This document shows positions 1 to 56,900 of a DNA stretch of 64,000 nt, one piece after another. The stretch's first letter is position 1. Each line of letters starts with the position of its first letter. Under the pieces are notes generated by a model that saw only the letters and a list, made by a program, of their open reading frames with translations, ran no database searches and was not told where the DNA came from. The translations under genes and the position numbers were made by a program. The stretch is from Nemertoderma westbladi (taxonomy: Eukaryota; Animalia; Xenacoelomorpha). The stretch covers positions 15,282 to 79,281 of the forward strand of contig JAUCBJ010008395.1 in assembly GCA_032718475.1 (NCBI GenBank), written 5' to 3'.

Positions 1-3000
1 CTGGGCGATTGAGTTGTTGCGTCTCAAAGATTATGCCTGGCTTCTTGAAGTTACGCCGCATGACGATGAGTTCTACCGAGCGTACTAAACCATCATCTGA
101 GATGTGGGTCTCGATGATACGACCTGTCTGCCACCGTTTACGTGGGAGGTCTGGATCTACAATAAGCACCATATCTCCGGCGCTGACGTTTTCTTACTGC
201 GCAAACCACTTAGTTCGAAGCTGTAGCGTGGGCAGATAATGTTTCTCGAAATGGTCAGCGAAACGACGGGATAGCAGCTGCATAAGTTGCCAAGTTCGAC
301 GGCAGTATTCGTCTCCGTCGGCAATCTCCGATCGTGGGAGCATGGCTACAGGTTTCTTCAGTAGGAAGTGCGCGGGTGTTAGCGCTTCCAGGGAATCGGG
401 ACTCGATGAGACTGGCATAAGCGGTCTCTCGTTGAGATAGGCAGCTATTTCCTCCATTAATGTCCGCAAAAGTTCGTCGGTGAGATACGCGCGGCATGGC
501 ACTATAAAGTGAAATGCCGTCTTGACACTTCTAATTAATCTCTCCCAACTTCCTCCCCACCAAGGGGCGTCGGCGGCGTTGAAGGTCCAGCTAGACGCTG
601 TTATCCTTAGCTGGTCGTCCACCTGTCTTTGGTTCCAGTCCTTCACGTAAGCCTGTATTTCGTTGTTGGCACCAATGAAGTTCGTTCCCTTATCCGATCT
701 CATGGTATTACTCGTCCCGAAGCGAGCGATCTGTCGTCGTAAACTTAAGACGAAGCTGTTGGTAGATAGATCGTTCACCATATCGAGATGGATGGCTCTA
801 CAAGTCATGCACACGAAGATGACACACCATCTCTTGACTATAGTCCTCGCACGATATACTTCAATAGGGCCAAATAAATCTACACCAGTATTAGTAAAAG
901 GTGGTTCATAGAAGCTTACTCGTTCCCTAGGTAATTCTGCCTCTCGCTGTGTTAAAGGCCTACTGAATGCTTTCCTACAGGGTATGCAGTTCCTAAGAAC
1001 TTGGTTCAGAGCTCTACGGGGTTTATCAAAATAATAGCGAGTTCGAATTTCGCTAAGAATTCGTTCTCTACCAGCATGATAAAGTTTACTGTGAACATCT
1101 ACAATCATCTTGATTTGTACTTCAAGATTTCTAATAAGTATGGGGAATTTGGTGTCAAAGGATAAGGGCGCGTTGGTGAGTCTTCCTCCAACACGTATTA
1201 ACCCATCTATCATTGTGCTCGAGAATCGATCCCTTAAGCGCATCTGCGGGTTTCTCAACAACAGGAAATACTTATCGGAATCCTCAAAGCATTGCAGGAG
1301 TCTCAGTATCTGCTTATTTGTTACTTCATGCTCCTGGTGACTAATTTTCTCCTTTAGAAAACGGTCAGATGTCTTATATTTGGGTAAATTTTTAATAACA
1401 TGAACTTGTGCAGATGTCAATGGAGCGTTATCACTAGTGGTCTTCGTCCTGGAGTAGTGATGATGAAAACATCGTCTTAAATATGTGACGGCTTTACAGA
1501 GCCGATTCCAGGAACTGTAATGATGCATTGCTCTCTGCAGCATGGGTGAGATTCCTTGCGAGACGTCTGGTATTCCAGATTTCCAATCTCTATCTCTAAT
1601 TTCCACAACAGACTTATTTGTGTTGAGGGATTGTGGATCCGAAGCATCATTCCCGGAAGTATGTAATACAGATAGATCGATAGTCGGTTTAAATAACTTC
1701 GATTTACTCGCCCGGGTTTTAGGTTTGACTGTCTCCGCTCCCTTGGCTTGTCTAATCTCTGCCGTAGTAAGGTGAGGAGGCCATTCATCCTCTTCCTTGC
1801 TCAGGAAGTCGGGTCCACCCAACCAATCTGGAGTATCTATCAGTTCCTGTGGAGTTGCTCCCCTGGAGGCGATATCGGCTGGATTAATCATACCAGGGCA
1901 ATGTCTCCATTGATCTATCTTTGTGCGACTAAGAATAATAGCTACTCGGTTAGTAACAAAAACGCTGAACTGACAGACTTCGTTGGTTAGATACTCCAAC
2001 ACGAGTAAAGCGTCGGTCCAATAAACCGTTTTCTCCAGTGGGTAGTCGATTTGTTCCGTTACGTTCCGGCCGATGGCTGTAGCGTATAAAGCCGCCTTTA
2101 ACTCCGCTCGAGGAACCTTTAACTTGTTGTTAATCAACGCCTTAGAGGTAACCAAGGCGACTTTGATTCCATCCGGGGTTTCGACTCGCAGATATGCTAC
2201 TATACCTATTCCCATGTCGCTGGCGTCTCCAAACACGTGGAGTTGATAGGAATACGTAGGAAGAACATGGCCAAAATATGCACGGGAAATTATAAAGTTC
2301 TCGATGGCAGGTAGAGAATCTTCCCATTTCATCCATTTCTTTAACAATTCTCCCTTAAGCGGATCATCCCATGAGTGGTTTTCAAGCCACATTTGTTGCA
2401 CTAAACTCCGAGCAATCAATATAACTGGGCTAATAAATCCCAATGGGTCGAAATAAGTGCTCAGGATGCTTAAACAAATCCGTTTGGTCCGAACTGGATT
2501 ATCTCGCTGTTTTAACTGAAAAAACAGGATGTCTCTTTCAGTGTCCCACTTCAAGCCTAGTGTCTTGGTTTCAGGAAGATCGTCCTTTATTAAGTCTAGG
2601 TCTTTCGTTCCTCGGTCTTCTACCGGTATGGCTTCCAGAAACTCACGGGAGTTGCTAGTGAATTTCGTCAGTCGAAATCCACCTCTTTTCAAACACTCCA
2701 CCGTTCCTTTCGCGACAGCTATGGCTTCTTCTACTGATGGAAGGGACCTTAAATTGTCGTCCATGTATATATTCCGTTTGATGTTGTCAATCACCTCTTT
2801 TGAGAAGGAGTCTCGGTTGTCATTCGCAGTGGTTCGCACCACGGAGCAGGCGTTGGAAGGGCTTGATATGATTCCAAAGGCCTGGATGGTCATCCAGTAT
2901 TCTACCGGTTTCTGATTGAGGTCTCCTTCAGGCCACCACAGAAATCTCAGGCTGTCTCTATCTCTATCCAGCGCCTTGACTTGTAAGAACATTCCTTCGA

Positions 3001-6000
3001 TATCGGAGGCGAACGCGATGGAATATTGTCTTAATCTTAAAAGTATTCCCAACAAAGATTGGAGTAAGTTGGGTCCTGGTAACAACTCGGAATTGAGGGA
3101 TTGGCCCATATATAGGGCGGAGCTATCGAATACGACTCGTACTTCGTGTGGTTTACCGGGTTTGGGAACGTAATGATGTGTTAAGTAATACGTTCTCTCA
3201 GTCACTGGTGTTCCTTCCGGTACTCGCTCCGCGTATCCCTTTGTTATAAATTTCTTCAGCTGAGTTTGGTACATTTCTTTCGCTGAAGCATTAGCTGTAA
3301 GGCGTCGATATAATTGAGCGATTCTTTTCTCTGCCAAGGGTCTGTTATTTATAAATCTAGGTTCTCGTTTTCGAAATGGTAGGCCGATTTCATACCTACC
3401 TTGGTCCTTTAAAAAACGTGTAGTTGTTTCCTGGATTTGCTTGGCTCTTTCTTCTTCTATCGATAGAGCCTTATCATATGAATTGGGCTCTACCAGTTCC
3501 TGAGTAAAGAATCGTACGGCTAGTTCGTCCCGAGTTCTAGCGTTGCAGCGCTCTATCTCATTGTTTAGTTCGTCATTGTAAGCGATGGGTTCCGATGGGC
3601 GAATCAGTTGACATAGGTTCACCTGATTTTTCCAAGTTTGGTTTTCTGTAAGTAGGTCGATGGTGTTCTCTTGATCGAAGAGTTGGTAGATGTCGTCATT
3701 ATCTGAAGAGTATGGTGTTTCCTCAGTTAGTTCATCCACCTCACTGCTCTCCTCGCTCCAATCACTCACCTGGTATACTCGTTCTTGTGGCCTTCTCTCT
3801 TCGAGAGTCCTGCGGGAAGGGCCAGTAAAGTACCAACCTACTCTAGTTCTTACCGCATAGGTTTGCAGTGGCTGCGGTTGAGCAGGCCGTTTCTCTAATG
3901 TTTCGAGCGCCTCGTGCGCGTTTTGGCCGATGAGTATTTGCACTCCAGGATAATCTGTCTGGAATCGAGGTATCTTAAGATGTTGGATGCTCTCATCTTC
4001 GTCCCAATTATAAAGGTCTGCTTGAGTAGTAGCGAAGTTCTTTATAGCCACAATTTTTACTGACCTTATACCTTGTGCTCCTAACTTATCCTGGGGGGTG
4101 GACAACACACCTACATAGTAATCTGCCGTTAGGGTAGATTTCCAAACCTGCATAATTCCTGACATATTCAATTTAGTCCGGAATTTGGGTTGTCCAGCAA
4201 AGATATCTTCGGCTAATTCTTGATCGATGAATGTTCCTGTGCTGCCGGAGTCAAGGAGTGCGTTCACTATGTAACTGTGGTTAGGACCGTGAACTCTTAC
4301 CTGCACTACAGGAAATTCTCTGATTCCTACGTTGGAAGTTGGAGCTTTCCAAGATGGTTGTTTGGCAAAAGTAGTTGGGGGAAACTCATTGTTGGTGTCC
4401 TTTTCATAAGTAAGTGCTCGATACACTGCGGTATTGATTAGATAACAGGATTCGTTGGCGTCGGAGAATTCGTCAGTATAGAATCCTTCCATCTCAGACT
4501 CCTGATCAGTGTCATTTACATCACTGAATTGGACATGTAGTTCGGGCTCACTTACCTGACTCTGTTTGTCTCGTTCGAACTCACTGTGTAACAAGATGTG
4601 ATGTTTCGCGCCACACTTTGCACACTTTATGTCGGAGTAACAGGTTCGCCATTGGTGTCCTGGTCTGAGGCAATTATAGCATAACCGCTTGTCCCACACA
4701 ACTGCACGTCTGTCTACAAGGGATTTCTTTAGAAATTCAGCACACGCACTCAAACGGTGGGTCCCGTCGCACAGCGCACAGTTAGGTTTTATGTTACTCA
4801 CTTTACCTTGGGTAACTTGATGCACTCTCGTTTTTTCTTCGGGTTTTCTTCGGTGCATTCTGTTAGGAGACTGAGGGGGGGTCTTGGCGACCTGTTCTCT
4901 CCTATCGTTGTTTCGAGCCTTGTATTTACTTACATCTTTTGATGTTTTGTCAACGTAGTAAGATCTCTCAGTGTCTTTCCCGCTATCCTCTTCTTGAGAA
5001 GCTTGGCTTTCGCCGTCGTCAGTGTAACACACCGGTGTTACTCTTCTCCTAGAAGCGGGTTTCTTACTTACCTTATTTTCCGATGTTTTCTCTCTGGACT
5101 GCTTGATGAGTTGTAGTTTTACCTCACCATCTAAGAAGGACATGAGATCAGCCATGGTAGGACTTCGTCGTTGTTGTTCATTCATGTACAACACTTTCTT
5201 GTCCCAACGTGTACATACTCCACCCTTGGGTAAAGTAGAGACTACTGCTCCAATAACCATGGAACTCTGATATTCATGAGACTTACCTAACCAGTCCAAT
5301 TGTCTACAGATTTCCTGAATTTCATCGGAAAACTCTATAATCCCGCTACTAAGGAAGTGTCGGGGGGCTACTAATTTTGCATACAAATACTTAGCTATGT
5401 TATCCTTGTTACCATACCTGATGTTTAATGTATCCCAAACTTGTCTCAATCCATCTGGATGTCCAATAAACTTTAACGCCATTAACCTGGGAGGTCCTTC
5501 CAAGCACTTGATGAGGAACCTAAGTTTCTCTCCGTTAGATTAGATAGTACAGAGTTTTGTATGCTATCTTTGTAATATTTGTTGAAAGGTAACCATTTCA
5601 TCTCATCTCCATTGAATTTGACGATCTCTCCCACTTTGACCGCTTGGCGGGCTTCTGTTCTAGCCATCTGACGCGTAAAGCTTTCTTGGGCCATCGTGTT
5701 ATTTAATATCGAATTATCGGTATATAAATTTCTCGGATCATTGTCAGGTCTATAAGGGATATCATTGATAACAGGTCTATAATCACCCTTAATAGGGTTT
5801 GCTATAGGAGTTTCTACTTCACTAGCAGTATAGATGCGGGTAGGCTCCACACCTTGCGCATGTACTACTTCAGACCTAACAGGTTGACACAATTTTACAG
5901 GGGGTATTGGTATTCCCTTTTGGATATTGACTAATTTGTCGCGTTCTAGCGCGATACTTTGCTGCACTTCTTGCAATTCGGCCCTACCTTCCCTTACTGT

Positions 6001-7995
6001 TCCCTTAAGTTGGTAGACAGTCTCCTGCATCTGTCCGAGCAGGAGATTCATCCCCCACCGTCCCTCCTCTACCCACTCGACCGCCGAAGCGGGAGTCGCC
6101 AACATTGTAGCGGGCTGACGTGGGGCGACGGGAGACAAATCTTTGATTTCTCTCTCAGCTTCCAGGACAGGGATATTCTCATGGACTGTTCTACCGGGCA
6201 CAGGCAGTGTAGTACTGTGTAAAGGGAATTTAGAGTTAAGCTCTGGAAGTACAGGGGTCTCTAACACAGGAGTGACTTTGGGAACGACAGGCCTAATTAT
6301 TTCAGGCTCATCAACTATAGTAGGGAGTCTTTTGACCTTAATAATTTGGTCTGTAGGTTCTATACTACTCAAGTCTGTGCTAGCTAATTGTCTTCTAACA
6401 GCTGGGGGCAAATCAGGCAATTTGTGACGGTAAGATGTTTTTCTACGCCTGCTTAGACGAGATCTATTTCCTCCGCCTTCAGGATCGGTGGTTTCGCTTT
6501 CCTCCGATGACGTATATCCTTGGCGTTTGGGAGTAGATTTTCTCATCATCTGCATGTGACTAGCAGTTAACTGTTTATTTATGTTGTCTTGCGTCTCTTG
6601 CAGATTTTCCAACTCCAGTTGGGTAGTCTCCTCAGAGGCTCTCCGTTCTGCTTCTGCCACTGCCTTTGCTGCTGCCACAGTCGCCTTTCTTTCTGCTTCA
6701 GCTTCTGCCGCCGCTGCCTTTCTTTCTGCTTCTGCTTCTGCTTCTGCCGCCGCTGTTACTGCAGCTGCCTTTCTTTCTGCTTCCACTTCGGCCATTGCCG
6801 CTGTTACTGCAGCTGCCTTTCGGTCCTCTATCCTTTTTTTCTTTACTAGTTCTTCTTGGACTCTAGTGAGGCGGAGTTTTTCATCAAACTCAGCTTGGTT
6901 AGCAGCTAACATTTCAGCATCGATTGAGTCTAACACACGCTGGGTTCCTTCACTATTAGGGGAAAGTCCAGACAGCCGTCTCCTCAACTCTTCGTCTCCT
7001 AGGAATCGCTGATAGTCGGACAGATATATGTCGATGGCGTCTCTCTTTCGTGGTCTCTCTGCGGTCTCTTCGCCTTCCACTTGAAAAAGGGTGGCATCGG
7101 TTGGTTCTTCATAGGTTAGTCTCTCAGACAGCTGGGATTTCCACTGGTCCGTTTCTTGTACTTTGAGACCTACCCGCTGGAACCAAGTTTTGACAGCAAC
7201 CTGCAGCGACGTGTCCTGTCTTCTTTTGGAAGTTTCCTCAAAAGCTGATAGGATTAGTCGAATGCGTAGGGTTCTTTCGCGTACTTGATATAGCAGTTCT
7301 TCCTGCTCTTGAGGTCCTTGGGGTTGTCGAAACAGTTGTTCTTCTAATCGCTCTAAGGAGCCGAAGAATCCCTGCACATATCCTGCTGCCGACCTCTTCC
7401 AAACAGCTGGATCCATAGTATCTTTAGCCACTCCCATTCTGTGTATATCTTCCCAAGTAGCCTCGGACAGATCTAACGGGAGTCCGGGTCCGGGAAAGTT
7501 CCATTGTGACTCGACAATAGACATCAATTCTTCCCTGGCGTATCCCGCATAATTATCTTGGGTCGCTCGCTTATTTCTCGCCCAGTCGGCTTGATGTTCC
7601 TCCACCGCAATCAATATAGTAGTTAGCACTGCGGCAGGAAGGGTGAGAAGGGGGTCCGAGTAGGCTTTAGCCGTCATCTGTAATCCGCGTTCGGGGGTCA
7701 GCTCGACAGTATCCGAACTACTGGAGCTATCGGATCGCTGGGAACAAGTTTCTTGACTAGGCTGTTGCTGCTGTGGGACAGCTGCTTCCTGGTTCCGTTT
7801 GACTTGGGCCCGAGTGCCGATGATAGACCTACGGTGTTGGATTAGCTTAGGGTCCGATACCACTACTGGAGGGATGACTTTTCTTTCAGTAGGAGGTGAG
7901 CTGAACTCCTTTCTTAATCGCTCCACACTCCTATCTGTGTCACAGATGGTTGTATCGATTAGACTGTCTGACAGGTTTTGCTGAGTGTCAGACAT
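1..7995 (-). pseudogene. BEL/Pao gag-pol of element A, broken by a frameshift near 5535-5544 and a nonsense codon at 194-196
   Basis: ORFs 5482-7995 and 194-5503 join (VLSNGEKLRFLIKCLEGPP) if one copy of the duplicated TTAGA is removed. After TAA at 194-196 the frame continues as ENVSAGDMVLIVDPDLPRKRWQTGRI...DGLVRSVEL, the typical BEL C-terminal domain. Confidence 0.92.
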
Positions 7996-9319
7996 GTTTA
8001 GCTATACAGTTGAATGCTTACTGCTATAGTTACAGTTAAAGCAAGTCTAGTAATTCAGTATGACCGTTGGCCTAGTACCGGTAATTTATCGCAGTATATT
8101 AGAATACCGGTATACACTTATAGTATATATAAGTATTGTAAACTAGGTTTGTCACAGAGTACCGGTATATAATTTTAGCACAAATATATAAATATATAAT
8201 AGGCCTATCGTGAATACCGGTATACAGCTTACACTGATAGTATATATAAGTATAATTATGGACTAGAATTAATTACAGAGTACCGGTATGATTTCAGCTC
8301 AAATTTATAGAAATAAATATAATAAGCCTATGGTAAATACCGGTATGTCAATTATTTTAGAATAATTGAATTTCTGAATATTTTAGGGTTACTTGGTTAC
8401 TTTAACTTACTTTGTTACCGTTATTTAAGCAGTAGTCCAACTGATATTGAGACCTAGTTGTTGTATGGCAGGCCTACTATTTATAAATCGTTTAAGTTGA
8501 TTTATAATAGATATATACCCGTTTAAAATGGGTTTTGTCAATATTTGAAATAAATGTTATTATTTCTGGGGTCACTACACAGAAGCTATGCGCTCTCAGT
8601 GGAGTGCTACTTATGGGACACTAAAACTGATAATTCTAATTTACCTAAGTTACTTAATACTACAAATTACTTACGATACGGGTGAGATTAATTCTCTAAT
8701 TAAACACAACAAAAATATTACGTACGAAATTTTAGGGTAATTTTACAGGAAGTCTACAAACCAGCCTAACAAAGGGTTAGAATTCTGGTTATTACAACGG
8801 ACAGGGTACTACGGTATTTGAAATAATAAGTAGTAGTAAATATATTGCACTGTCCAGATAGGAAAATACCACCGCCTGACGACCTATAACTGTATCGCTA
8901 TAGGTACTACGTTATGTATCACGGAGTGTTCCTACCTAGAAGTTAATTACCGCGGACTACCAGATCCAGCGTGCCTATTAACCACTTTACAACACAAATA
9001 TACTGCCTACACACTAATTACTTTCGGAAAGCACTGTACACTAAACCCTAAATTAGGTACAAGCACTGGTACAACAAATAATCAGTAGTTAAATATACTT
9101 GAACAGTTAAAAGAACCACGGCATCTGCTGGAGTGACCAGAGCACAAAGTCACCAGTCTTGTCCTACGCCAAGCAGCCCGTGTAGTACCGGGGTTAATTT
9201 AACTATAACGGTATGTGTAACAAACACAATTACTGTAGGAATAAACTTGGGGACATGAATGTTGCGAATAATCGCATAAACTCTGAATAATAAATATTAC
9301 GCTACCCGTACAGAATACT

Positions 9320-14145: not shown

Positions 14146-14223
14146 CTGTTTAGAGTATTTACGTATATTAGAAACTGTGATTTTGTATATTTTATAGACT
14201 CAAATCCCATTTTCTGGGAGCGG

Positions 14224-15482
14224 TGTAAAAGCTTCTGTGGGATATAACTGGCCCTTTTGCTTCGCAATCCAGTTTCCCCCCTAGGCGCTGGAATACTCTA
14301 AAAGGCTCTATAACTATATATATATTCCCCTCGCCCGCAAGGTACCGTTATAGGTGTTTTAACGGACATAAAAGTCATTCTGCTATATACGTGTTTTGGC
14401 GGACATGGTAAGGCAAAAAACCTGCAATGCACCAAATACCTTTCACAGCTTAGCCGTGATGATTCATATTACGACATCTAACAGCTGGTTGCTGACATGG
14501 AAACAGCCATTGGCCACATGGTTCTTTGTTTAGCTTAAGCCAATCAGAGCGATTTTTTCTGTCGACGTGTAGATATTCGGTCAATCATACTAGGAGTGTT
14601 CAGTCTTACTGTTTTTTGTGATACTGTTGTGTTGTTGCTATCTAGGCCAGGAACACCGGCTCTAGAGTCAACTCGTTCATACTTTAGAAGAAACATTAGT
14701 AGGCTTAAATTATAGAGCGTATAACTGTTATCAGTGCAGTCCGACTCAATCGGCACATACATTGTCATATCATATCTTAACCTACCGTCTTAATGCTTTT
14801 TACTGTTGTCATATTTTGTATTAGTTGGTTGAATATTATTTGGAGAACATTTATAAAGAACCCAAATTTCCCAATTTTCTTGATACACTACAGGTTAGAG
14901 AGACGGGTTATATATAGCGATTGCGACTTATATTATTGTGTATGTAGTGAATTTAATGCTATTTGATAAGCACTACATTGGTCCGTTGCTGTTCTCTCTA
15001 TATATGATAAAATTCATTGACGGTCGGCAAATTAGTGAGCAGTATTGTGTGTTACCGGTAGTGTGCATGATTGTGACTGATAACTAAGCATTTCCTAAAG
15101 AATGCGCCTCATACGTGAATCATAAGCCTTACCGACTTACCGTTGTGATTAGTATAAGTCATATCTCTGTTTACTTAGATAGAGCGCCACGTCCTAAAGG
15201 AACTGTTAATATTTCCAGAAAGTGAATAATATTAGTCAGAAATTATTTATTAACGATCAATCGAATAATACAGTAAGCTTACACTGCAATAATAATCTAA
15301 GCCCTCAGAATCCAGCCCCCCGGGTATATCCAGCGGGTGAATGGACGCGCACTAGGCTGGCTTCTGCTAATGTTGTGTTTATTGGTATTAAATATTTGTC
15401 AACTTCTAAAGTATATTTATAAACCAAAAGACATATAAATTTTGGCAGGTTAAACTGCTAAAGGTCTTCAAAAGCGCGTACA
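14224..15482 (+). repeat. 3' LTR of copy A'
   Basis: TGTAAAAG...CGCGTACA, preceded by the PPT; CCAAT box near 14540. Confidence 0.88.
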
Positions 15483-16012
15483 CATGTATTTTAAAGACCT
15501 CAGGGGGAACACCATCTACTCCACTGGCACGATTGGTCTTAATGCTCTTTGCAGCAGCCTTCACTTCTGCAAAGGAGATATCACCAATGGGAATATCTGG
15601 GAGTTCAGACTCAGACACTTTTACTTCTATAAAGTTATCAGGCAATACCCTGTCATTATTGAGGAGCTGTTCAAAGTGGGCCTTCCAACCATTGAGGCGA
15701 TCGGCTGGTGATTCAGCCTTAACCTTGGTGGTTGGTTGGCTTTTCGACCAGCAAGCAAGTTGATCGATCTCCATGCCTGGGATGATTGCCTGCTGTCGTC
15801 AGCATCATTGATGGCATCAACCTGTTGGTTTATTAGCTCCTGTAAATTAACAGAGTACTGCCTGTTCAGGGACCTAGATGCAGCCTTAACTACATTCTTG
15901 GCCGCTGTAGTCTGTTTGAGTCGGGACTCTTTCTGCGCCTTGTAGAGGTCATTTCGGCACTTCTGAATTTTGTTGTCAGTCCAGGGGGCCCGTTTCCTGT
16001 TTCGAGGGTATA
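15483..16012 (-). mobile_element. RTE-like LINE fragment (linker / N-terminal RT region)
   Basis: Translation WKAHFEQLLN...EVKAAAKSIKTNRASGVDGVPPEVFK is typical of the non-LTR pre-RT region. It continues at 27178 after element B. Confidence 0.8.
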
Positions 16013-16970
16013 TGTTAAACTGGGATGGTAATAATGGGCCTCGCCCTGATTACTTTGTTTATTATCTGATAATAATTGACTGCCAATCTCTGTAGATAGT
16101 AGCTCCCACATTTCCTACTTTCTATTGGTACAGTACAAGGTGCTAATAGTTATGATCAGCTGTTCTGGCCCTACCATTGAATGCCTTGTAACGATAGTTA
16201 AGGAATTATTGCGGTCAGGTGGTACCTCAGCTTTCATGTAATAGTGTTGCTTTCATGTAGTCAGGTTGTACCTCTACATTGATAATACCGTACTAAACAT
16301 ATTTGAACTTATTTATATTTAGATATATTTCATATTTATATTCAGTCAGTGGCTACCTAGTACTCGCTGTGCTGTACGAGGCGACCCAGTCTTGCCTGGT
16401 GCTTTTCCTCAACCGAGCAGTTTACCGTCCGCGTGAGTTATCCGGTCGCGGTCACGGTCGGTGCGTCTGGATGGTTGGTGGCCCCCCTTGGCCCCAACGG
16501 CAACCACCGATAGCTCAACAAACTCTATTTCATTCGGCCTTGCCTATTCGCCTGACATAACGGCATAGGGAGCCATACTTTCCTTTAACGTGTTATCTTT
16601 CACGATACAGATAACCCACCTATTGGGTTTCTGGGATCATTATATTATGATATAAAGTACACCCTCAATCGTACTGATTGTCGGGCCTGTTTGTGTTGGT
16701 TATTATTGTGAACGGTGCTACACAGCGGAGGCCAGTTAAACAAACAAAGTGAGTTTCAAACCACATTAATAGGTTTACCCTGCTTGGTGTCTTGTAGCTC
16801 TACCGTAAAGCCATAAGCTGCCCCCTTATGACCCTTTTGTGTAAGATAGTTTAAAATAAGTGTGCGAATGTCCCCTATCCACCCCGGAATTCGACCTGTC
16901 AGTCACGTCGTACCGAGAAAGTCGGGTGTCAGGTTCTTTATTAACTGTCTAACAGTCACCGACTTTGACA
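16013..16970 (+). repeat. 5' LTR of element B
   Basis: TGTTAAAC...TTTGACA, direct repeat of 26215-27172. Confidence 0.97.
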
Positions 16971-16982
16971 TTAAAGGAAAGT
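16971..16982 (+). promoter_or_regulatory. Non-tRNA primer-binding site of element B (TTAAAGGAAAGT), complementary to LTR-internal 16577-16588
   Basis: It abuts the terminal CA of the LTR and is the perfect 12-nt reverse complement of ACTTTCCTTTAA inside the LTR. There is no TGG-type PBS. Confidence 0.7.
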
Positions 16983-17595
16983 TAGATTTTTCAATTAATA
17001 CCAGTTACCTGTAATTGATATTAATTGGAGAAAGTGCGATCCTCATTCGCCACCTTTCTGTGTGGTCTGATTTTACTTACAGTACCTTTAAAGTGAGATA
17101 TATATTAAAAAAAAATATATAAGGGTTAATTTTTTACTGTTGCTGGTAATATCTAAGTTTATATATATACTGTACTGTTGTATATATGGTGTGTTTACAT
17201 AGAGTAGATATACCGGTAGTATACATAATTAAATTGACTTGGGATTCCAATGATATTTGACTGTGGAATGTCTGCATACTGGCAACCTTAATAAAATTAC
17301 ACACCTTTGATTAAATTGATAATTGGTTTAATTTCGTAAATTTAAATATATTGAAATTGGCCTAAAACGAATAGTTTTGTTTCCGCAGCGATTTGTTGCA
17401 GATATTGTTTACTATTTCGACTTACTACTAACCGCTAACCGCTGTATAGTTTCTCATTTAAATTTAGGCTATAATGTAAAAGGTTGACCTGAAAAAATTG
17501 GTTATTAAAAAGATAAAGGCTAATTTATTTTATTTTACAGGCCTACATAATCAATTATTAATTTATATAAATAACAATTCCCACAAGTATTAAAT

Positions 17596-20500
17596 ATGAG
17601 TGATTATAGTAAAACTAGTCAAAGGTCAACCCAAAGTCAGCAAGTCCTAAGTCCACAGCGAACCAAACCAAAGGTTATACAGGATAAAGTACAAGGTGGC
17701 CTTGGGGCACCTCCCACAAGGAACGCAGCTCATGTTGGGGCTGCGGCCGTAGCCAATCAAAACTTACCTGAGATTTTGGTTAGCCTAGCTGCACTTGGTC
17801 TCGACGCTGCCTCTCTGGAAACAGAGGGTTGGCGCAGGGCACTTGGTGGGGTCATTGGCTACCGCAACCGCCGAGTCAATGAAATTATTGCCTTGCAAAG
17901 GGCATGGACTGATGAGACTCCTATTGATCTCCTACGGGGTTATGGCATCGAGATGGAGGAGATATTATCAAAAAGACGGCATCTCAGTGAAACCTTGCTT
18001 CGGTATGCTAAACTTACAAACCGTGAGCCCATATGCTTATATGTACAAAAGGCAGATGCCGAATTTACTGTCATAATCAATAAATTTTTTAATGCTATGC
18101 CGGGAGGTCTATACCCACTTAAAGCAGCCAAGTCTTTGGGAGAGGTGGTGCCACCAGTAGTGGATGAAATCACTGGTAAAGTTGCTGATATGACAATTTG
18201 CTCACCAACCAATATATCAGTTGTACCTTATGTTACACCAGTAAGTCGTTCTGTTGATGTAGCTACTGAATTAGCAGCTGATAACACACTCTGTCCAAAC
18301 GACAGTGTTTCCCAAATACCCGTAGGTTCTCACTGCAGCAACTCCAGTTCTACCGTTCGAGCCTATCTGGAGGCTGAGCAGAAAAGGGATGAAGCACACA
18401 GGGAGAGAGTTAGGCGCCATGCTGTAATGGAGCAGGAGGAAGCTCTCCTCAAAGCCGAGGCTGTTAGGCAACGCGCTATTAAAGAGCAAGAAGAACAAAT
18501 CTCTCGCGTTGATACTGCTATAATCAAAGCACAGGCCAAGCGGCGTGCCCAAGAAAAAATGGATGAAGCTGAAATGGAGATTGAGCAGCGTAAATCTCGT
18601 AGAATCATTGAGTATGGTTCAGGTGGAAGTGCGGGATCAGGTCTTTCACGGGGAACATTTCCGCTCCGAACCCCAGATCGACATCCACATGTAACATCTA
18701 CACTCACTTCAACACAAATCCCAGCGACTATGCCAGTGACATATAATAATTTGTCGCCACCTTTAGTGTCGGCTGTTAAGGCAGCCAATCCATCCATAAC
18801 ACCATTAAATCCAAAGGCAGTGCCTTTCCTGCCATTAAAACCATTACCAACTGGTCAATATCGGGTTCGAGAACCAAACCCAAACCATAGGCGAAGTATG
18901 CCTTCCTCTGCTGCCATACCCATTCATCAAGATCCTGAAGCAGAGCGACAACCATTTGCCTCAGGTACTCGACCACCAATTGCGAGTAATCTTCCACAGG
19001 TAACCAAGAAATTTCCAGCTCAGGACATTCGGTATCTACCAGGAACTGCTTTAGGGTCAAATCCACATCGAGAATTCATGAACACTGACAATGGTCCTCC
19101 CATCCCACGATCACAAAATCCAGTGTGGTATCCACATAATGCAAGAATGTCTGGGCCACCATATGGCTCGCAGCGACATCAATATCCAGAGGTATCCCGA
19201 TATAATGATGTTGATCCAATGGGATATCCAGAAATAGGGACTCAAAATCAAAATACCCAAAATATTGGACAATCACAATCTGGGCTTAACACTAGTCTAG
19301 AACAAGCCAGTATGCGAATTTTGTCGCATACAGAAATCAATCGATTTCTACCATACACTAAATTTGTCACCTTCAAAGGTGACCCAGAACAATGGCCAGC
19401 CTTCTTACAGTACTTTACCACAACTGTTCTTAGTAAAGGCTTGTCCTCTCAGGAAAATCTTAGCTTTTTGCTATCTGCAACTGCTGGGCCGCCCCACCTT
19501 GCAGTCACCCAACATATTGGAATCCCTGGGGGTTTTGAGAAGGCCTGGGCAAAACTTAAAAAACGCTATGGCAATCCGCGATGGCTTGCCAAAGAGTTAT
19601 ATCGCCAAGTTATTGAGTATCCTGCTCTTAAAGGCCAGCAGGATATTACTCCATTTTTTGATACATTGGAGCGTATTGTAGCGCAATTAACAGCAATTGA
19701 TCAAATAAATGAATTGGATAACGCCCCAATTATAAGTACTATGGTCCAGAAACTAACTGGAGCATGTCAAGGTCGGTGGTTTAAGAATGTGAAACGTCTT
19801 GTATACCCCGAATCTGATCGTATTATGCCTCGTTCTGAGAATCTAAATGATTTTATGAAGTTTCTTGAATGGGAAGTTGATTTGGCTGAGTGCAGTGGTG
19901 CCCCAACAGCTGCTGCTATAGATAAGGCAGCACGGAATCAACCTAGAACCGAATTACGGCCTTCTTATCGATGGCATCCAAAAAAGGCAGTTGAAGCAGC
20001 CTTTGCAGCCTCAGCAGCTGTAACTCCAGAAATTTATAATAAGTCAGCCGATGAGGAATCAGAAGAAACAACCTGTGCAGTAACAGACCGCAAATTGCCT
20101 TTACCAAGTAAATCAAAATCCTCTAAACCAAAACTGTCATGTGAAAAACCCAAGTCAGTACCACCCGAATGCATCCGATGTAAAAATGGTAATCACCATA
20201 TCTACCGCTGCGAAACATTTCACAAAGATGATGTTAAACAGCGCCGAGACTTTATATCAAAGTCTCGACTTTGTTATAATTGTCTTCGTTCAGGTCACAC
20301 CACCACAGAGTGCCCTTCAGCACGAAATTGCAGAGCATGTGATAATCGCCATCATACCTTGATATGTCGAGACCCTAATGCTTCAACTGCTGTAGCTGTA
20401 CTTACTGCAGAGTTGATTACTGGATCAGATTCATCCTTTGTTGAAGATAGTCCAGGAGAGGTAGAAGCAGAGGCTGAGGCCTATATAGTTGAAATGGTAG

Positions 20501-23500
20501 ACTCTCCATCCATTGCTAAATCTTTCTTTATAGGAAAACGCAGTGTTAAAGAATATCCTATTCTTCCAGTTCGTGTCATGGGTCATGGCATTGAGCATCA
20601 CTGCTTTGCTTTGCTAGATACTGGCAGTACTGCAACATTTTTAGATGAGTCTGTCTTTGACAAGATCTTCCCAGAATCAACTAGTCTTAGATTGACATTG
20701 CAAGGTATTTCAGGGGAAGAAGTCATGGGTACAAGAAAGGCATTTGGCTCCATTAGTTCTCTGGAGGGAAGCTGTACTGCTCGCCTCCCTCGTGTGCGAA
20801 TGGTTCGCCTGAAGTTTGGTCAAGCTTGTGGTCAAGCATATGATTGGGCTTCAGACCCTTTTCCTGCAGAAGTTGGCTTGAAAGCACCAACTCTGCCTGA
20901 TCCATCAGTTGTAATGATCATTGGTGGTAATTGCTCAGAAATGCGTATTATATTAGAACAGCGCCCATCTAATCCTACTGCATATGGATGTCTAGCTACC
21001 CGAAGTCTACTGGGTTGGTACTTTACAGGCCCCTCTCGACGAACTTGTATAGAACGCCAATGGCCAGTTGATGACATTGAATCAACAATGGCTGCTGATC
21101 GTGGTGATGCCTCTGCTGCACTATGGGCACAGGAGGTTCCCCCCGGTGAGACCTCTGAGCTGCTTCTTCTTCAAGAAGAAGTATACCAAGAAGATGATGA
21201 TACTGATGTACTATCTGAAACTTCCTTTACCAACCTCATGGAAGAGTCTCTAAACATAATAAATACTGGTCTAGATCTTCTCTGTGATGAAGATAAATAT
21301 GTACTTCAAGCTTTGGATCATAGAGTTTCTGCCTGGATTGATGGTCTGAAATTGCAGCCCCATGATTTAGAGAAAGCTAGCTCTGTAGAAGAGCTCCGTG
21401 CCGCTGAAATACAAAGGACTACACGACGTCTTCTCCCAGATGGCCATTATGAAATAGGCCTTCTCTGGCGAAAGCCTGAACCACGCCTCATTAATAATCG
21501 TCCACTTGCCTTAAGACGTCTAAATTCCCTTAAGAAACGTCTAATTGACAACCCTGAAGTAAATGTAATGTACCGCGCTGAAATGGACAAACTCTTAGCC
21601 AACGGATGGGCTATGCGTATTCCAGATCACTTAATAGCACCAACTCCTCGAACTTATTACTTGCCTCATCATTTCGTTATAAATCCTAATAAGCCAGGTA
21701 AAGTTCGTGTTGTAAATGATTGTGCTGCTGTATATCGTGGAATTTCTTTAAACAGTGAGATAATGAAAGGACCAAACTACCTTAGAAATATTGTAGGAAT
21801 TCTTCTTCGATTTCGAATCTCAGCTATTGCTTACATTGCAGACATTGAAGCTATGTTCATGCAGGTCAGAGTTACTCCGGTAGACAGAGATTCCCTGAGG
21901 TATTTATGGTGGGAATCTGAAGACATGTCAGGGGATCCCATAGAATATCAAATGTGTTCTCAAGCATTTGGTATAATATCTTCTCCATCAAATGCTGGTA
22001 GCAGTGTTGTTGGTTGCGTTGCAGATAACCAAGACCTCACCGACTCACTGGGAGAGCCGTTTTACTCACCTGATGCTGCAAGTACATTACTTCGCGACAT
22101 TTATATGGATGATATAATGAGTGCACAGCCAACAGTTGAACAGGCTATTATTGTTGCCCACCAGGTTCGTGACACTCTTGCACTAGGTGGTTTCAATCTT
22201 TTGAAGTTTGCAAGTAATAGTTCTAAGTTCTTAAAGTCTTTCAGTCCTGAGCTTCGCCAGGATGCTACTGTAGAACTTGGTATTGACCCACTTCCTGTAA
22301 CGAAAGCTCTAGGCATTCTTTGGGATCCTACAAAAGACAACCTGTTCTTTAAGGTTAAGTCCTTTACCGATGGACCTCGGACAAAGAAGTCTTGCCTCTC
22401 TATACTAGCAACGACATTTGATCCTCTAGGATTGATTGCACCAGTCATTATGGCTGGGAAAATTCTTTTAAAGGATATCTGGGCTCATGGCTTAGATTGG
22501 GATGATCCTCTTCCTGGTCACCTCTTAGCACAATGGTATAAATGGGAAACAGCCTTACACTATTTAGACACTATGCTCCTGCCACGTCAGTATTTGCCTG
22601 ATCTTCAGCCTACCTCATCTGTGGCATTCCATATCTTCAGTGATGCAAGCAGTTTAGGCATGGGAGCGGTTGCATATCTTTGTTGGGATGATGAACAGAA
22701 TATTGGTACTGCATTGTTAGGCAGCAAAACTCATATCATGCCTACGAAAGGACTAACCATACCCAGAGCAGAATTGCAAGCTGCAGTATATGCCGTTGAA
22801 TTAGCTAGAACTCTACATAAAGAACTCATATGGCCTGAGGCCAAAATTACATTCTGGACAGATGCTTCTTTAGTTCTGCAGTACTTACATAACGAGACTA
22901 CTCAGTTTGTAGTTTATGTTGCAAACCGAGTTCAAGCTATTCTCTCATTCACCACTGTGGCTCAGTGGAGACATGTACCAGGTGATCAAAACCATGCCGA
23001 TTCCGCATCGCGTGGTTTAATTTGTGACAAATTCTTAGACTGTAAACTTTGGTTCGATGGGCCAGAATTCTTACAACAAGGACCAGAGTACTGGCCTCCT
23101 CCCCTATCTGACACTACACTCGGGAAGGGAGCGGAACTCAAGGTGAAGCCTCTGATATTGGCTGTTCCAGACTTCGATTCTGCATTACAAATTAAGGTTT
23201 CAAGCCTTAGTAATCTGCTGCGGATTGTAGTACCTTCAACTGGTAATGAAACCTTTCCTGATACTACAAAAAATGTTAGTCCCCTATTACTTGATCTTAT
23301 ACAGCATTATCGATCCTTTAATAGAGCTGCAAGGGCTATTACATGGATTAAACGTTTTATTCATTGGTATTTTGGTGGAAAACCAAAGTTAACACCCAAT
23401 AAATTACCAAATATGGTTCCTCTGAAAGAACCAAATGCTGAAGACAATTCCATCCTTGAAGATACAAACAAGTGTAAAAAGCACAGAGTTTCAGAAGTGC

Positions 23501-24999
23501 TACTCACTTTACGTTCCTCGACTGTAAATTCAGCTATACCATCTTTGAAATCAAACTCAACCAAGACAAAAATCGTTATACCTTTAAATACTCATCAGGC
23601 ACTCTTATGCCTCACACCGCTTGAGATAGATAGCTCTCAACGGCAATTACTACGCTTTATTCAGGTATACACTGTGCCTGAAAACTACCGACAGCTACAA
23701 ACATTACAACGGTCTTATATTCCCGATAGATTCCATGCTGTAATGCACAATGGCCTAATGCGTGTTGGAAGCCGAATTGCCGGTGCATATTCTAGTTACG
23801 AGCAACAATTTCCTATCATTCTGTCCAATGCCACAGTTATGAGAGGCCTTATTTACGATTCACATCTTCGAAATCATCATGCAGGTCAAGAATATATTCT
23901 TGCAGATCTGCGTCAACATTACTACTTAATCCGGCCATGGAGATCTCTCCGGTACATTTTAGATCAATGCCTACCCTGTAAACGGCTATTTGCACGTCCT
24001 TGTGCGCAGCTTCAGGCCCCACTGCCACCCGAACGTCTTCAAATAGGTAAGCCAGCCTTCACATCCACTGGTGTGGATATGTTTGGCCCCTTTAGTGTAC
24101 GCAGGGGCTACCGTATATATAAACGTTGGGCGATAATATTTACATGCTTTACAACTAGAGCAGTTTACCTTGATGTTGTCGATCATCCTGACATGCAAAG
24201 CTTTATGCTCTGCCTTCGGCGTTTTGTAGCATCGACAGGGGGTGCAACCAAATACCGTTCAGACTGTGGCTCTAACTTTATTGCTGCTGCCAGAGAACTG
24301 CAGCAGTTCATTGAGGACTGGAATGAACCTGTACTTAAACAGAAGTTGGTTGAATTCCAGTTGGTCTATCAACCATGGCACTTTAACCCACCCTATGCTC
24401 CATGGTATGGTGGTGCCTATGAGCGGTTAATTCATTCAATCAAAGCCGCTTTGACAAAGATAATGCCATCACCACGAGATTTTTCGGATGAGATGTTCCG
24501 TACGCTCCTTTTAGAGATTGCAGATTCTATTAACCACCGGCCATTAATCCGAATATCCAATGATCCGGATGCCATAGAGGCAATAACCCCTGCTCATTTC
24601 ATAAATCCCCGTCCATCGTCATTACAGGTATATGAACGCCATGACGATGGTGACACTCAAGCATACTACCTCCAAGCTTTATATAAGGCAGTCGCCTTAC
24701 ATGTAGATGTCTTTTGGGGTATTTGGAAGGATCACTACCTTCCCACAATTCAAACAAGAACAAAATGGTTTTCAAAAGCTCCAAACCTAGCTTTAAATGA
24801 TCTCGTTATTGTTGATGAGCCCAATGTCCCTCGTCATAAATGGCTGCTTGCACTAGTACGGGAAATTCACAAAGGTGATGATGGTTTGGTTCGCTCAGTA
24901 ACTTTACGGCTTTCAAATGGTTCAACATTACAACGTCCAATTCAACGTCTGGTATTGCTTGAGATGGCTGCAGGCCACCAAGGTAATTACGGACAATAA
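17596..24999 (+). CDS. BEL/Pao gag-pol polyprotein (2467 aa, intact)
   Basis: Gag knuckles CIRCKNGNHHIYRC, CYNCLRSGHTTTEC, CRACDNRHHTLIC; protease LLDTGS; RT YMDD; RNase H FSDAS; integrase GVDMFGP, SDCGSNF, PWYGGAYE. Confidence 0.97.
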   Translation: MSDYSKTSQRSTQSQQVLSPQRTKPKVIQDKVQGGLGAPPTRNAAHVGAAAVANQNLPEILVSLAALGLDAASLETEGWRRALGGVIGYRNRRVNEIIALQRAWTDETPIDLLRGYGIEMEEILSKRRHLSETLLRYAKLTNREPICLYVQKADAEFTVIINKFFNAMPGGLYPLKAAKSLGEVVPPVVDEITGKVADMTICSPTNISVVPYVTPVSRSVDVATELAADNTLCPNDSVSQIPVGSHCSNSSSTVRAYLEAEQKRDEAHRERVRRHAVMEQEEALLKAEAVRQRAIKEQEEQISRVDTAIIKAQAKRRAQEKMDEAEMEIEQRKSRRIIEYGSGGSAGSGLSRGTFPLRTPDRHPHVTSTLTSTQIPATMPVTYNNLSPPLVSAVKAANPSITPLNPKAVPFLPLKPLPTGQYRVREPNPNHRRSMPSSAAIPIHQDPEAERQPFASGTRPPIASNLPQVTKKFPAQDIRYLPGTALGSNPHREFMNTDNGPPIPRSQNPVWYPHNARMSGPPYGSQRHQYPEVSRYNDVDPMGYPEIGTQNQNTQNIGQSQSGLNTSLEQASMRILSHTEINRFLPYTKFVTFKGDPEQWPAFLQYFTTTVLSKGLSSQENLSFLLSATAGPPHLAVTQHIGIPGGFEKAWAKLKKRYGNPRWLAKELYRQVIEYPALKGQQDITPFFDTLERIVAQLTAIDQINELDNAPIISTMVQKLTGACQGRWFKNVKRLVYPESDRIMPRSENLNDFMKFLEWEVDLAECSGAPTAAAIDKAARNQPRTELRPSYRWHPKKAVEAAFAASAAVTPEIYNKSADEESEETTCAVTDRKLPLPSKSKSSKPKLSCEKPKSVPPECIRCKNGNHHIYRCETFHKDDVKQRRDFISKSRLCYNCLRSGHTTTECPSARNCRACDNRHHTLICRDPNASTAVAVLTAELITGSDSSFVEDSPGEVEAEAEAYIVEMVDSPSIAKSFFIGKRSVKEYPILPVRVMGHGIEHHCFALLDTGSTATFLDESVFDKIFPESTSLRLTLQGISGEEVMGTRKAFGSISSLEGSCTARLPRVRMVRLKFGQACGQAYDWASDPFPAEVGLKAPTLPDPSVVMIIGGNCSEMRIILEQRPSNPTAYGCLATRSLLGWYFTGPSRRTCIERQWPVDDIESTMAADRGDASAALWAQEVPPGETSELLLLQEEVYQEDDDTDVLSETSFTNLMEESLNIINTGLDLLCDEDKYVLQALDHRVSAWIDGLKLQPHDLEKASSVEELRAAEIQRTTRRLLPDGHYEIGLLWRKPEPRLINNRPLALRRLNSLKKRLIDNPEVNVMYRAEMDKLLANGWAMRIPDHLIAPTPRTYYLPHHFVINPNKPGKVRVVNDCAAVYRGISLNSEIMKGPNYLRNIVGILLRFRISAIAYIADIEAMFMQVRVTPVDRDSLRYLWWESEDMSGDPIEYQMCSQAFGIISSPSNAGSSVVGCVADNQDLTDSLGEPFYSPDAASTLLRDIYMDDIMSAQPTVEQAIIVAHQVRDTLALGGFNLLKFASNSSKFLKSFSPELRQDATVELGIDPLPVTKALGILWDPTKDNLFFKVKSFTDGPRTKKSCLSILATTFDPLGLIAPVIMAGKILLKDIWAHGLDWDDPLPGHLLAQWYKWETALHYLDTMLLPRQYLPDLQPTSSVAFHIFSDASSLGMGAVAYLCWDDEQNIGTALLGSKTHIMPTKGLTIPRAELQAAVYAVELARTLHKELIWPEAKITFWTDASLVLQYLHNETTQFVVYVANRVQAILSFTTVAQWRHVPGDQNHADSASRGLICDKFLDCKLWFDGPEFLQQGPEYWPPPLSDTTLGKGAELKVKPLILAVPDFDSALQIKVSSLSNLLRIVVPSTGNETFPDTTKNVSPLLLDLIQHYRSFNRAARAITWIKRFIHWYFGGKPKLTPNKLPNMVPLKEPNAEDNSILEDTNKCKKHRVSEVLLTLRSSTVNSAIPSLKSNSTKTKIVIPLNTHQALLCLTPLEIDSSQRQLLRFIQVYTVPENYRQLQTLQRSYIPDRFHAVMHNGLMRVGSRIAGAYSSYEQQFPIILSNATVMRGLIYDSHLRNHHAGQEYILADLRQHYYLIRPWRSLRYILDQCLPCKRLFARPCAQLQAPLPPERLQIGKPAFTSTGVDMFGPFSVRRGYRIYKRWAIIFTCFTTRAVYLDVVDHPDMQSFMLCLRRFVASTGGATKYRSDCGSNFIAAARELQQFIEDWNEPVLKQKLVEFQLVYQPWHFNPPYAPWYGGAYERLIHSIKAALTKIMPSPRDFSDEMFRTLLLEIADSINHRPLIRISNDPDAIEAITPAHFINPRPSSLQVYERHDDGDTQAYYLQALYKAVALHVDVFWGIWKDHYLPTIQTRTKWFSKAPNLALNDLVIVDEPNVPRHKWLLALVREIHKGDDGLVRSVTLRLSNGSTLQRPIQRLVLLEMAAGHQGNYGQ

Positions 25000-26214
25000 G
25001 CAAAATCTGACAAAGGCTTCTGCTGTGAAAACAATGCCAGTGGGCCTTAAACTGTCTTCTACATAGCTTTACATTACAAGTATGTATGATTTATGTTAAT
25101 TATGTGTTAGTGGGGGTATGTGTGTGTTTGTACTACGTATATATGGGTATGCAAATAATTACCTAGACTTAAAAATTACCCCTTAGTGAATTTTGGGAGC
25201 GGAATCGAAATTATTACTCGACTGATGACAGACCGAGTTTTACTTCTGCCATTTCTCTGTTTGTAAAGAAACACGGGGCATGCATTAAAGAAAAAAAAAA
25301 AAAAAATGTCACATTGCAATGTATAAGGGCTTGAATATGTTCTTATATTTGCTTTGGAACTTGCCATCTGTAATTAAAACTTAGTATTAGTAAAAGACAC
25401 CAAGCAATTTTGAACCTCATAGGTAATCCAGCTCACTTTGTCATAACGGCATAAGCTTATTAGTACTGAACACAATATGGCTGATGCTTCAGGCTTCGAT
25501 TAATCTGAGAGATCCGATTCAGTGTTGGCGATGTTGGGGAGAAATGATGCGAGGCTACCCTCTGATATACAATAGCTTCAAGTCTCACATTCTCGTGCGT
25601 CTCATTTAGATATGTTTTGGATCACTATCTAACACGAGTTTCCATCTGTATCTGCGCCATTGTGGTCTGATTTCTCCAAGAAATCTGGATATGAAAACCG
25701 AAGAAACATTCTGAGGATCTCACTGCTGATGATGTTGTGGATCCACCACTGCTTACATCACCTCCACTTCTCAACCCCTGGGATCCGTTGCTTGGACGAT
25801 TCTGGATCTACTACTTTGCATGCAGGATGGTAGTCAGTGTGTTTGCCCGATCGATATTCGTACCAATACACAGGTTGCTCAGGAAGCATTGCCTTCAAAA
25901 CCGAATCAGTACTCCAATTATTCATATATATATATATTAAATACACCGTACTGTGTTCTGATTGTGCAATTTGTAAAATTTATGCTAATCTTATTCAACA
26001 CTTGAAATAGAATAGGGCTTTTTCCGCTGTGTAGCTCCTTTTGCCCTTTCTAGGAGATATAATTTTTTGAGATATAAATTTTGTGCTTTGTAGATATTTT
26101 TAGTTTTGAGTTATTTCGCTATACCACTGAAGTCCACTTACTCCACTGAAGTCCAGTGCGAGTCCATCTTCCCTGACTATGGGATGCTACCTCGCGTCGT
26201 ATCCCAGGGAGCGG

Positions 26215-27172
26215 TGTTAAACTGGGATGGTAATAATGGGCCTCGCCCTGATTACTTTGTTTATTATCTGATAATAATTGACTGCCAATCTCTGTAGATA
26301 GTAGCTCCCACATTTCCTACTTTCTATTGGTACAGTACAAGGTGCTAATAGTTATGATCAGCTGTTCTGGCCCTACCATTGAATGCCTTGTAACGATAGT
26401 TAAGGAATTATTGCGGTCAGGTGGTACCTCAGCTTTCATGTAATAGTGTTGCTTTCATGTAGTCAGGTTGTACCTCTACATTGATAATACCGTACTAAAC
26501 ATATTTGAACTTATTTATATTTAGATATATTTCATATTTATATTCAGTCAGTGGCTACCTAGTACTCGCTGTGCTGTACGAGGCGACCCAGTCTTGCCTG
26601 GTGCTTTTCCTCAACCGAGCAGTTTACCGTCCGCGTGAGTTATCCGGTCGCGGTCACGGTCGGTGCGTCTGGATGGTTGGTGGCCCCCCTTGGCCCCAAC
26701 GGCAACCACCGATAGCTCAACAAACTCTATTTCATTCGGCCTTGCCTATTCGCCTGACATAACGGCATAGGGAGCCATACTTTCCTTTAACGTGTTATCT
26801 TTCACGATACAGATAACCCACCTATTGGGTTTCTGGGATCATTATATTATGATATAAAGTACACCCTCAATCGTACTGATTGTCGGGCCTGTTTGTGTTG
26901 GTTATTATTGTGAACGGTGCTACACAGCGGAGGCCAGTTAAACAAACAAAGTGAGTTTCAAACCACATTAATAGGTTTACCCTGCTTGGTGTCTTGTAGC
27001 TCTACCGTAAAGCCATAAGCTGCCCCCTTATGACCCTTTTGTGTAAGATAGTTTAAAATAAGTGTGCGAATGTCCCCTATCCACCCCGTAATTCGACCTG
27101 TCAGTCACGTCGTACCGAGAAAGTCGGGTGTCAGGTTCTTTATTAACTGTCTAACAGTCACCGACTTTGACA
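26215..27172 (+). repeat. 3' LTR of element B
   Basis: Direct repeat of the 5' LTR, preceded by GGGAGCGG. Confidence 0.97.
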
Positions 27173-27177
27173 GTATA

Positions 27178-56400: not shown

Positions 56401-56900
56401 AGTGTAAATAATCGCCAGGTTGTCGACCGGAATTTCTAACTTTCTGTACCCGTTTTTTGGGATCGAGACGTAATCTGCTGTCTTTACAGCACTCTGTCCA
56501 ACCTCCCTCTAGCGGGAAGGTTGGCAGGCAATCTTAGGATCGAAACGTAGCTAACTGGCCACTCAGCAGTCTCCTTGGCTACCCAATCAGGACGCTTCCT
56601 GAGACGGTATTTAAGGAGCTGCTGGCCACTTTTCCTCACTTCCAAGTCGACAACCTTTTCCTTGTGCAAACCCCTGCTTCAAAGTTTAGTGATTTAATTG
56701 TCTCCTCTTCTATTTCCTTATTATTCAACGAACTATTATAAATAAACTCAGTTATCGCGTTCACTCAAAATCAACTTTTTCAACCTTCACCTTACCCTTC
56801 TACCTCTACTTTGGGAGCCGTCACATAGTTGCACTCCCTTCGGCAACTGGGATTCTAAAATCGAAGACTCTCTGCATCTCTCAACGCCCAGTTCGCCACA
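50444..56900 (+). mobile_element. BEL/Pao LTR retrotransposon C
   Basis: It has 498-bp LTRs (50444-50941 and 56403-56900), TSD AAGCC, PPT AGGAGGGGAG, and a truncated tRNA-Tyr-like PBS CTTCGAACCGGAT at 50942-50954. Confidence 0.96.
50977..56136 (+). pseudogene. BEL/Pao gag-pol of element C with one nonsense codon (TGA 55558-55560) in integrase
   Basis: LLDTGS, YVDD, YADAS, GLDYAG, SDNATTF. HAP*HGGFWERMVG corresponds to the conserved APWxGGFWER, and the downstream ORF 55582-56136 is in the same frame. Confidence 0.92.

Follow-up and report, generated by a model that had tools for sequence, protein, structure and literature searches.

The window, by which we mean the whole stretch of 64,000 nucleotides analyzed here, is animal DNA with three BEL/Pao elements, A, B, and C, recognized by the Pfam families PF05380 and PF03564 plus PF18701 or PF17921. 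Element B (16013-27172, plus strand; 11.2 kb) is an intact, recently inserted BEL/Pao retrotransposon. Comparison of its two plus-strand LTRs (5' LTR, 16013..16970; 3' LTR, 26215..27172), each 958 bp long and of the form TG...CA, revealed a single difference, at 16887, and comparison of the flanks identified a 5-bp target site duplication, GTATA, at 16008..16012 and 27173..27177. The host site is a high-copy tandem repeat that continues beyond the far side of the insertion and has a contig depth far above that of the element. Frame, domain, and motif analysis assigned gag-pol to one open frame of 2474 codons (17596..24999, plus strand; open from 17575, first ATG at 17596), which contains DUF1759, three Cys/His knuckles, protease, reverse transcriptase (RT; YMDD), the acidic motifs of RNase H, integrase, and DUF5641. 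The matches to PF03564, PF05380, and PF18701 and the order protease-RT-RNase H-integrase are those of BEL/Pao proteins, and the ends (TG...CA LTRs, target duplication, polypurine tract) agree with them; by inspection, the purine-rich tract (26203..26214, plus strand) abuts the 3' LTR with zero spacer. In the 1.2 kb between the stop codon and the 3' LTR (25000-26214), no frame of at least 150 codons and no env-like gene was seen.

In runs X1 and X2, contig depth summed across the LTR of B was about twice that over its leader (211 vs 107; about 295-340 vs 150-160). Among the variants listed from the run contigs (3 variant rows and 102 loose ends lie outside this list), none placed a variant letter in either copy of the 12-mer described below. 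Run X5 held next to none of the words of B, its coverage being that of the flanking repeat only. A 1494-nt contig of run X4 comprises the first 684 nt of the B LTR (16013-16696) followed by 783 other letters, after which it loops back; it is possibly a small non-autonomous derivative of B that retains the 12-mer.

The coding region of element A lies at 194..8001 on the minus strand and element C, a distant BEL/Pao element, at 50444..56900 on the plus strand. Elsewhere in the window, frames with PAN and laminin-G-like domains (28813-29520 and 31228-31986) are probably pieces of a host gene, tandem arrays with units of about 9-11, 54, 12, 17, 68, and 63 nt occupy 32350-33700, 35286-36719, 37781-39400, 39630-41020, 45293-46135, and 60852-61542, and a dispersed repeat of ~250 nt occurs at 46488, 48956, 56959, and 62018.

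Pairing of the element B leader with its own LTR

The initial annotation proposed that no TGG-type tRNA primer-binding site follows the 5' LTR of B and that the 12 nt found there are complementary to a segment inside the LTR, with the pairing ending exactly at the terminal CA. Sequence comparison bore out all of this. The putative primer-binding site (16971..16982, plus strand) starts directly 3' of the terminal CA, at offset 0, lacks TGG, and is the exact reverse complement of the predicted 12-nt self-primer at 16577..16588 on the plus strand, a second copy of which lies in the 3' LTR at 26779-26790; neither end of the match can be extended. Sub-matches of its own aside, it is the only match of at least 10 nt starting within 16013-17455. 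Dinucleotide shuffles of the B LTR reached 12 nt at offset 0 in 1 of 20,000 cases and, with offsets 0-5 allowed, in 16 of 20,000; at ordinary positions of the window, a 12-nt match in the preceding 958 nt was found 26 times in 42,600.

Self-primers have been defined by pairing of at least 10 bp at 0-5 bp from the LTR (PMC6317226, in the part covered), and B shows 12 nt at offset 0. The ICTV description of the Belpaoviridae gives tRNA priming from an 18-nt site complementary to tRNA-Arg or -Gly (PMC8742986). B has no such site, there being no TGG after its LTR, and departs from this description; its BEL/Pao membership rests on its proteins. Its length also exceeds the quoted 4.2-10 kb, whereas the TG...CA LTRs within 0.2-1.2 kb, the single gag-pol, the order protease-RT-RNase H-integrase, and the purine tract are shared with the family (PMC8742986). 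ARAGORN found no tRNA in the window or in the 86 loci of relatives introduced below, and an Rfam search of the span 15900-17700 returned no convincing match.

When the region 16570-17050 was folded, the duplex of primer and site was present in both the minimum-energy and the centroid structures (z -2.63). Its mean predicted pairing probability is 0.93 when the RNA is taken to begin at 16575 and 0.24 when 150 nt of upstream sequence are added; over the upstream additions it falls to 0.24-0.38. A strong hairpin (16987..17032, plus strand; z -4.85) is predicted just 3' of the site and is not conserved, z being below -2 in B alone among the families. For a U5 hairpin next to the primer-binding site, z is 0.14 in B and -2 or lower in 3 of 15 families. 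A six-pair extension of the duplex, between 16590-16595 and the LTR end, appeared in one duplex fold and was not retained, no counterpart being found by eye in the relatives. Rejected, too, was the 12-mer as a branch point (intron from 16434 to an acceptor near 16609), which does not suit the relatives, where the 3' part of the primer is exonic. A motif scan identified a splice-donor-like site in the predicted R/U5 (16749..16757, plus strand); joined to acceptor-like sites ending at 17388 or 17540, it would yield an mRNA that loses the primer-binding site.

Related families and the neighboring elements

A scan of metagenome contigs yielded 427 relatives of B, and the best 80 of these 427 (35-43% identity) were kept; they form 52 clusters, to which six further loci from genome contigs were added, for a total of 86 loci. 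The end of the 5' LTR was fixed by comparison with the 3' LTR copy in 13 clusters (that of L021 was set by eye and is TA), and L082, a complete element from genome contigs with identical 320-bp LTRs, makes the 14th family. The family counts leave out 39 clusters and 5 loci without a defined LTR end; five such clusters were scanned blind, of which three gave 11-15 nt and two nothing at 10. Scans of viral contigs found no relative, and a search for longer homologs found none. L081-L086 are BEL/Pao-related sequences in six bacterial genome bins and are most likely contamination from host animals.

None of the 14 related families whose LTR end is defined has a tRNA-type site, and all 15 families, B included, show a self-match of 10-15 nt at offsets 0-5. 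Seven of 210 pairs in the cross-family control reached at least 10 nt, six of them among three families that share one identical 11-mer, and none of 45 orientation controls reached 10 nt; the donor list used for spliced matches was tuned after the data had been seen, and when every GT was accepted as a donor, 10 nt was reached by 10 of 156 cross pairs. The paired stretches comprise 13 distinct sequences over the families, B counted, and BLAST similarity between family LTRs was limited to one pair, over 24 nt. The initial annotation had called for just such a comparison of the nucleotides after each 5' LTR with an LTR-internal complement, and the outcome is in its favor: all 14 relatives pair, and the letters differ. 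L076, alone among the 14, has TGG within its first 8 nt, yet pairs over 10 nt with its own junction. No compensatory change was seen within a family, and the copy L008 carries a site mutation without a change in its partner. Only 8 of the 15 families have a predicted duplex probability above 0.5. The base following the primer is C in 15 of 18 cases, and 15 of 18 end in AC; in B, the last two bases of the primer are AA and the first base of the site is T.

In 12 of the 14 relatives, the pairing forms only across a GT-AG junction inside the LTR, which the initial annotation had missed. The introns measure 67-366 nt, with the donor GTAAGT in eight, GTGAGT in two, and GTAAGG and GTTCGT in one each; L066 and L082 pair contiguously, like B. 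For B itself, an intron junction as the source of the primer was ruled out, the best spliced match being 7 nt vs 12 contiguous. B and A group with the related families (SH-aLRT 94; FastTree support 90), and the contiguous families stand apart from one another in the tree, a pattern consistent with repeated loss of the intron; B represents a branch that either lost the intron or is intron-free. In L078, the 5' LTR copy (1-214) lacks exactly the predicted 117-nt intron that the 3' copy (6935-7265) keeps, which shows that splicing takes place there; this is the only such form for the 12 junctions. The contig may be an RNA or an intron-lost genomic copy, the latter because it runs 1.6 kb beyond the 3' LTR.

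Element A is sister to B, with 47% identity in RT/RNase H and a tree support of 100, and its LTR and leader DNA give no significant alignment to those of B. It had been put forward as a second instance of the same arrangement, a claim that did not hold: because the window does not reach the 3' LTR of A, its 5' LTR has no defined end, and the 10-nt matches of A are no more frequent than expected by chance. Among 88 CA positions scanned upstream of gag, three separate sites reach 10 nt (9214/9216, 8567, and 8211), and a recount with the donor list of the relatives gave 3 CA positions at 10 nt vs 0-3 in 12 shuffles. The candidate at 9214 (site 9213-9204 pairing with 9994-9985, minus strand) has a plausible layout, and a TG-start at 9996 shows 7 of 8 terminal matches; that start would put the partner at the very beginning of the LTR, which makes the candidate ambiguous. 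If the LTR did end at 9214, A would be a second case within the branch of B, perhaps with an intron running from 9987 to 9594. A may well share the layout of B, and provides no independent evidence for it. On the minus strand at 9300-9900, a ~290-nt tandem duplication upstream in A carries several donor- and acceptor-like sites, and at 5482-5539 the gag-like and pol frames of A overlap in different frames, where its sister B has a single frame. Adjoining the upstream region of A, an element at 10226-15482 has TGT...ACA ends and inverted repeats of ~1.3 kb that are 91% alike; no target duplication is evident, and a frame of 349 codons includes a faint zinc knuckle. This element may have removed part of the A LTR.

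Element C served as a negative control. LTR comparison and trees show it to be a distant BEL/Pao element with identical 498-bp LTRs, outside the clade of B, A, and their relatives in RT/RNase H trees, and the best self-match between its leader and its own LTR is 6 nt. The start of the leader, directly after the terminal CA (50942-50954), is what we take to be a tRNA-like 13-mer without the usual TGG head, and the primer of C may be a 3'-trimmed tRNA. With its identical LTRs and a target duplication, C is very young; its long frame opens within the 5' LTR, and a stop lies at 55558-55560 inside the integrase region.

Predicted RNA start, proposed mechanism, and alternatives

An initiator-like CCATACT overlapping the start of the primer had been annotated and is indeed present (16573..16579, plus strand), with a rival in the initiator-like TCAGTC at 16342, which stands behind AT-rich words at 16324-16337 in an upstream promoter candidate found by motif scan (16324..16350, plus strand). 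The motif scan and the family alignment place a CA at 16574-16575, with the predicted RNA start at 16575-16577. A CA with its A at -2 from the first paired base is found in 9 of 15 families, including B, against a background of 5.2%, and in 9 of 203 cases in the cross-family control; with related families collapsed, the count is 6 of 11 (p below 1e-5). Within two bases of the pairing start, CA occurs in 14 of 15 families, and a CA stands 3-11 nt before each of the 12 donors, compared with 144 of the 248 GTRAGT sites that the loci contain (p 0.0015). Read as an initiator, the CA means that the pairing ends where the RNA begins, and on sequence grounds we infer that transcription of B starts at 16575-16577; the CA could alternatively be a recognition or cut signal. 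A start that makes a short primer is also suggested by strand transfer: the primer-binding site would be renewed by copying of the primer, and a long tail left unpaired would stand in the way of the second transfer.

No clear TATA box lies 25-30 nt before 16575 in B, and in L021 and L037 TATA boxes lie 140-170 nt upstream of the donor. If the RNA starts at the CA, the first exon of the intron-bearing relatives would measure only 3-10 nt, which would be unusual. The intron-less LTR copy of L078 carries 83 nt of upstream LTR and, if it is a transcript, would point to a start well upstream.

That B primes itself from its 5' LTR in some form appears likely, and with moderate confidence we favor a Tf1-like form of it, in which the first 12-14 nt of its own RNA prime the minus strand and are freed by its own RNase H, an activity recognized in B by its acidic motifs only, next to the RT motifs. 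The front of the RNA would fold over ~380 nt of R/U5 onto 16971-16982 and be cut after 16588, presumably by the RNase H of the element. A cut at this point leaves a 3' end opposite 16971, so that copying would begin with the last A of the LTR, and the primer-binding site would be restored when the plus strand is copied from the primer. B would carry its primer in one piece, and 12 of 14 relatives would assemble theirs by removal of the LTR intron. Self-priming with a start near 16575-16577, as originally proposed, thus draws support from the 14 families, the element C control, and the position of the CA, and no longer from element A. A wider reading, which we advance tentatively, is that an entire branch of BEL/Pao elements from various animals uses as primer the capped first 10-15 nt of its RNA, which in most families the host spliceosome would build from a first exon of 3-10 nt, and that B became intron-free by way of a reverse-transcribed spliced 3' LTR.

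A less probable form of self-priming has the RNA start upstream, at ~16345 in B, with the 12-mer cut at its 3' side and a long unpaired tail left at its 5' side. TCAGTC at 16342 behind its AT-rich words, a strong donor at 16433, and a diverged LTR in runs X1 and X2, which aligns to a short block from 16316 after a 116-nt gap, fit such a start, as does the upstream 83 nt of the intron-less L078 copy, although this may be an intron-lost genomic copy; and the relatives would not need a first exon as short as 3-10 nt. This reading leaves unexplained, however, why the CA holds a fixed place two bases ahead of the pairing; the predicted pairing drops to 0.24-0.38 with upstream sequence included, and a long primer, once copied into the plus strand, would give an unpaired 3' tail ahead of the second strand transfer.

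We regard it as unlikely that the pairing is a structural or regulatory contact (for packaging, or a translation or splicing switch) and that a host RNA primes at or near the site. The ICTV does give an 18-nt tRNA-complementary site for the family (PMC8742986), and a strong hairpin lies directly behind the site of B, but 13 site sequences that each match their own LTR only are poorly explained by a fixed set of host RNAs, TGG falls in the first 8 nt in a single relative of the 14, which still self-pairs, and an exact match over a splice junction in 12 families is what would be expected had the site been copied from the primer. It is more doubtful still that the primer is the 3' end of the RNA, cleaved and polyadenylated at the 3' LTR copy of the 12-mer (26779-26790) and pairing from there with the site. 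The 12-mer does occur in both LTRs, but the LTR of B has neither AATAAA nor ATTAAA, hence none just before 16588, 9 of the 12 intron-bearing relatives have such a word downstream of their primer site, and an RNA ending there would have no R overlap for strand transfer. Chance complementarity in AT-rich sequence, for which one could cite that the feature was picked from many possible ones and that A matches at chance level, is very improbable given 1 of 20,000 shuffles and 15 of 15 families vs 7 of 210 controls, so that the initial judgment against chance holds by way of the LTR shuffles and the families, element A not being usable.

Relation to known systems and implications

Like B, Tf1 and Tf2 of Schizosaccharomyces pombe, Tj1 of S. 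japonicus, the Tf1/sushi elements, and Tcn1 (Ty3/gypsy) have no tRNA site. In Tf1, the first 11 bases pair with the primer-binding site, and the RNase H cleavage falls between bases 11 and 12 (PMC7175516, in the part covered). Tf1/sushi-type elements and B have in common a site of 11-12 nt right after the 5' LTR that pairs with an LTR-internal segment and a cleavage predicted where the duplex ends on its 3' side (PMC7175516 and PMC4600332, each in part). By its domains, B is a BEL/Pao element with no chromodomain listed, one that works like the Tf1/sushi group of Ty3/gypsy and is no member of it, so its self-priming would be convergent or an old shared state. In contrast to this group, primer and site are ~380 nt apart in B, there is no significant U5 hairpin, and the primer of most B relatives spans an intron. 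Tf1 reportedly requires a U5 hairpin, to go by the title of Lin and Levin's 1998 paper.

By the same LTR-primer-binding site criterion, self-priming has been predicted in Tcn1 and in the TAR lineage of plant Ty1/copia elements (Houba, Osr-1; PMC6317226, in part). B belongs to another superfamily and other hosts than the TAR lineage, and, since self-priming is already predicted outside gypsy, BEL/Pao would be the third superfamily. The nearest named relatives of B are from sea urchin, oyster, and fish, hosts in which Sinbad-type elements have been reported (PMC8220671, in part). B might be placed in the Sailor lineage (Sinbad, Sparrow, Surcouf) or Suzu clade; the trees here consist of unnamed relatives. 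In their main texts, three BEL/Pao surveys (PMC3118150, PMC6238403, and PMC8556966) contain no mention of primer-binding site, primer, or tRNA, and PMC554778 none of primer-binding site, priming, or tRNA; the portions covered of PMC3601003, PMC8220671, PMC3286476, PMC11042837, PMC5443660, and PMC2864245 describe no case of BEL/Pao self-priming. Nor was a report of it found in the literature searched, whose scope excludes Repbase reports and most subscription journals.

The feature of B is well supported as real by comparison between families. The standard description of the Belpaoviridae is one of host-tRNA priming (PMC8742986), from which B departs; Tf1 has been proven to self-prime, and some lineages of gypsy and copia are predicted to do so. 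If B primes itself as proposed, all three big LTR superfamilies would do so, which bears on whether tRNA priming is ancestral; annotation tools that need a tRNA site would miss or mislabel such elements; and self-primed elements might be beyond the reach of tRNA-fragment silencing at the primer-binding site. Intact, young, and with a one-piece primer, B is a convenient test case with predictions at the level of single bases (start at 16575-16577, cut after 16588). Its relatives add a stranger prediction, in which the primer is spliced and its first exon is tiny, and, if this reading is true, splicing would be a license for reverse transcription.
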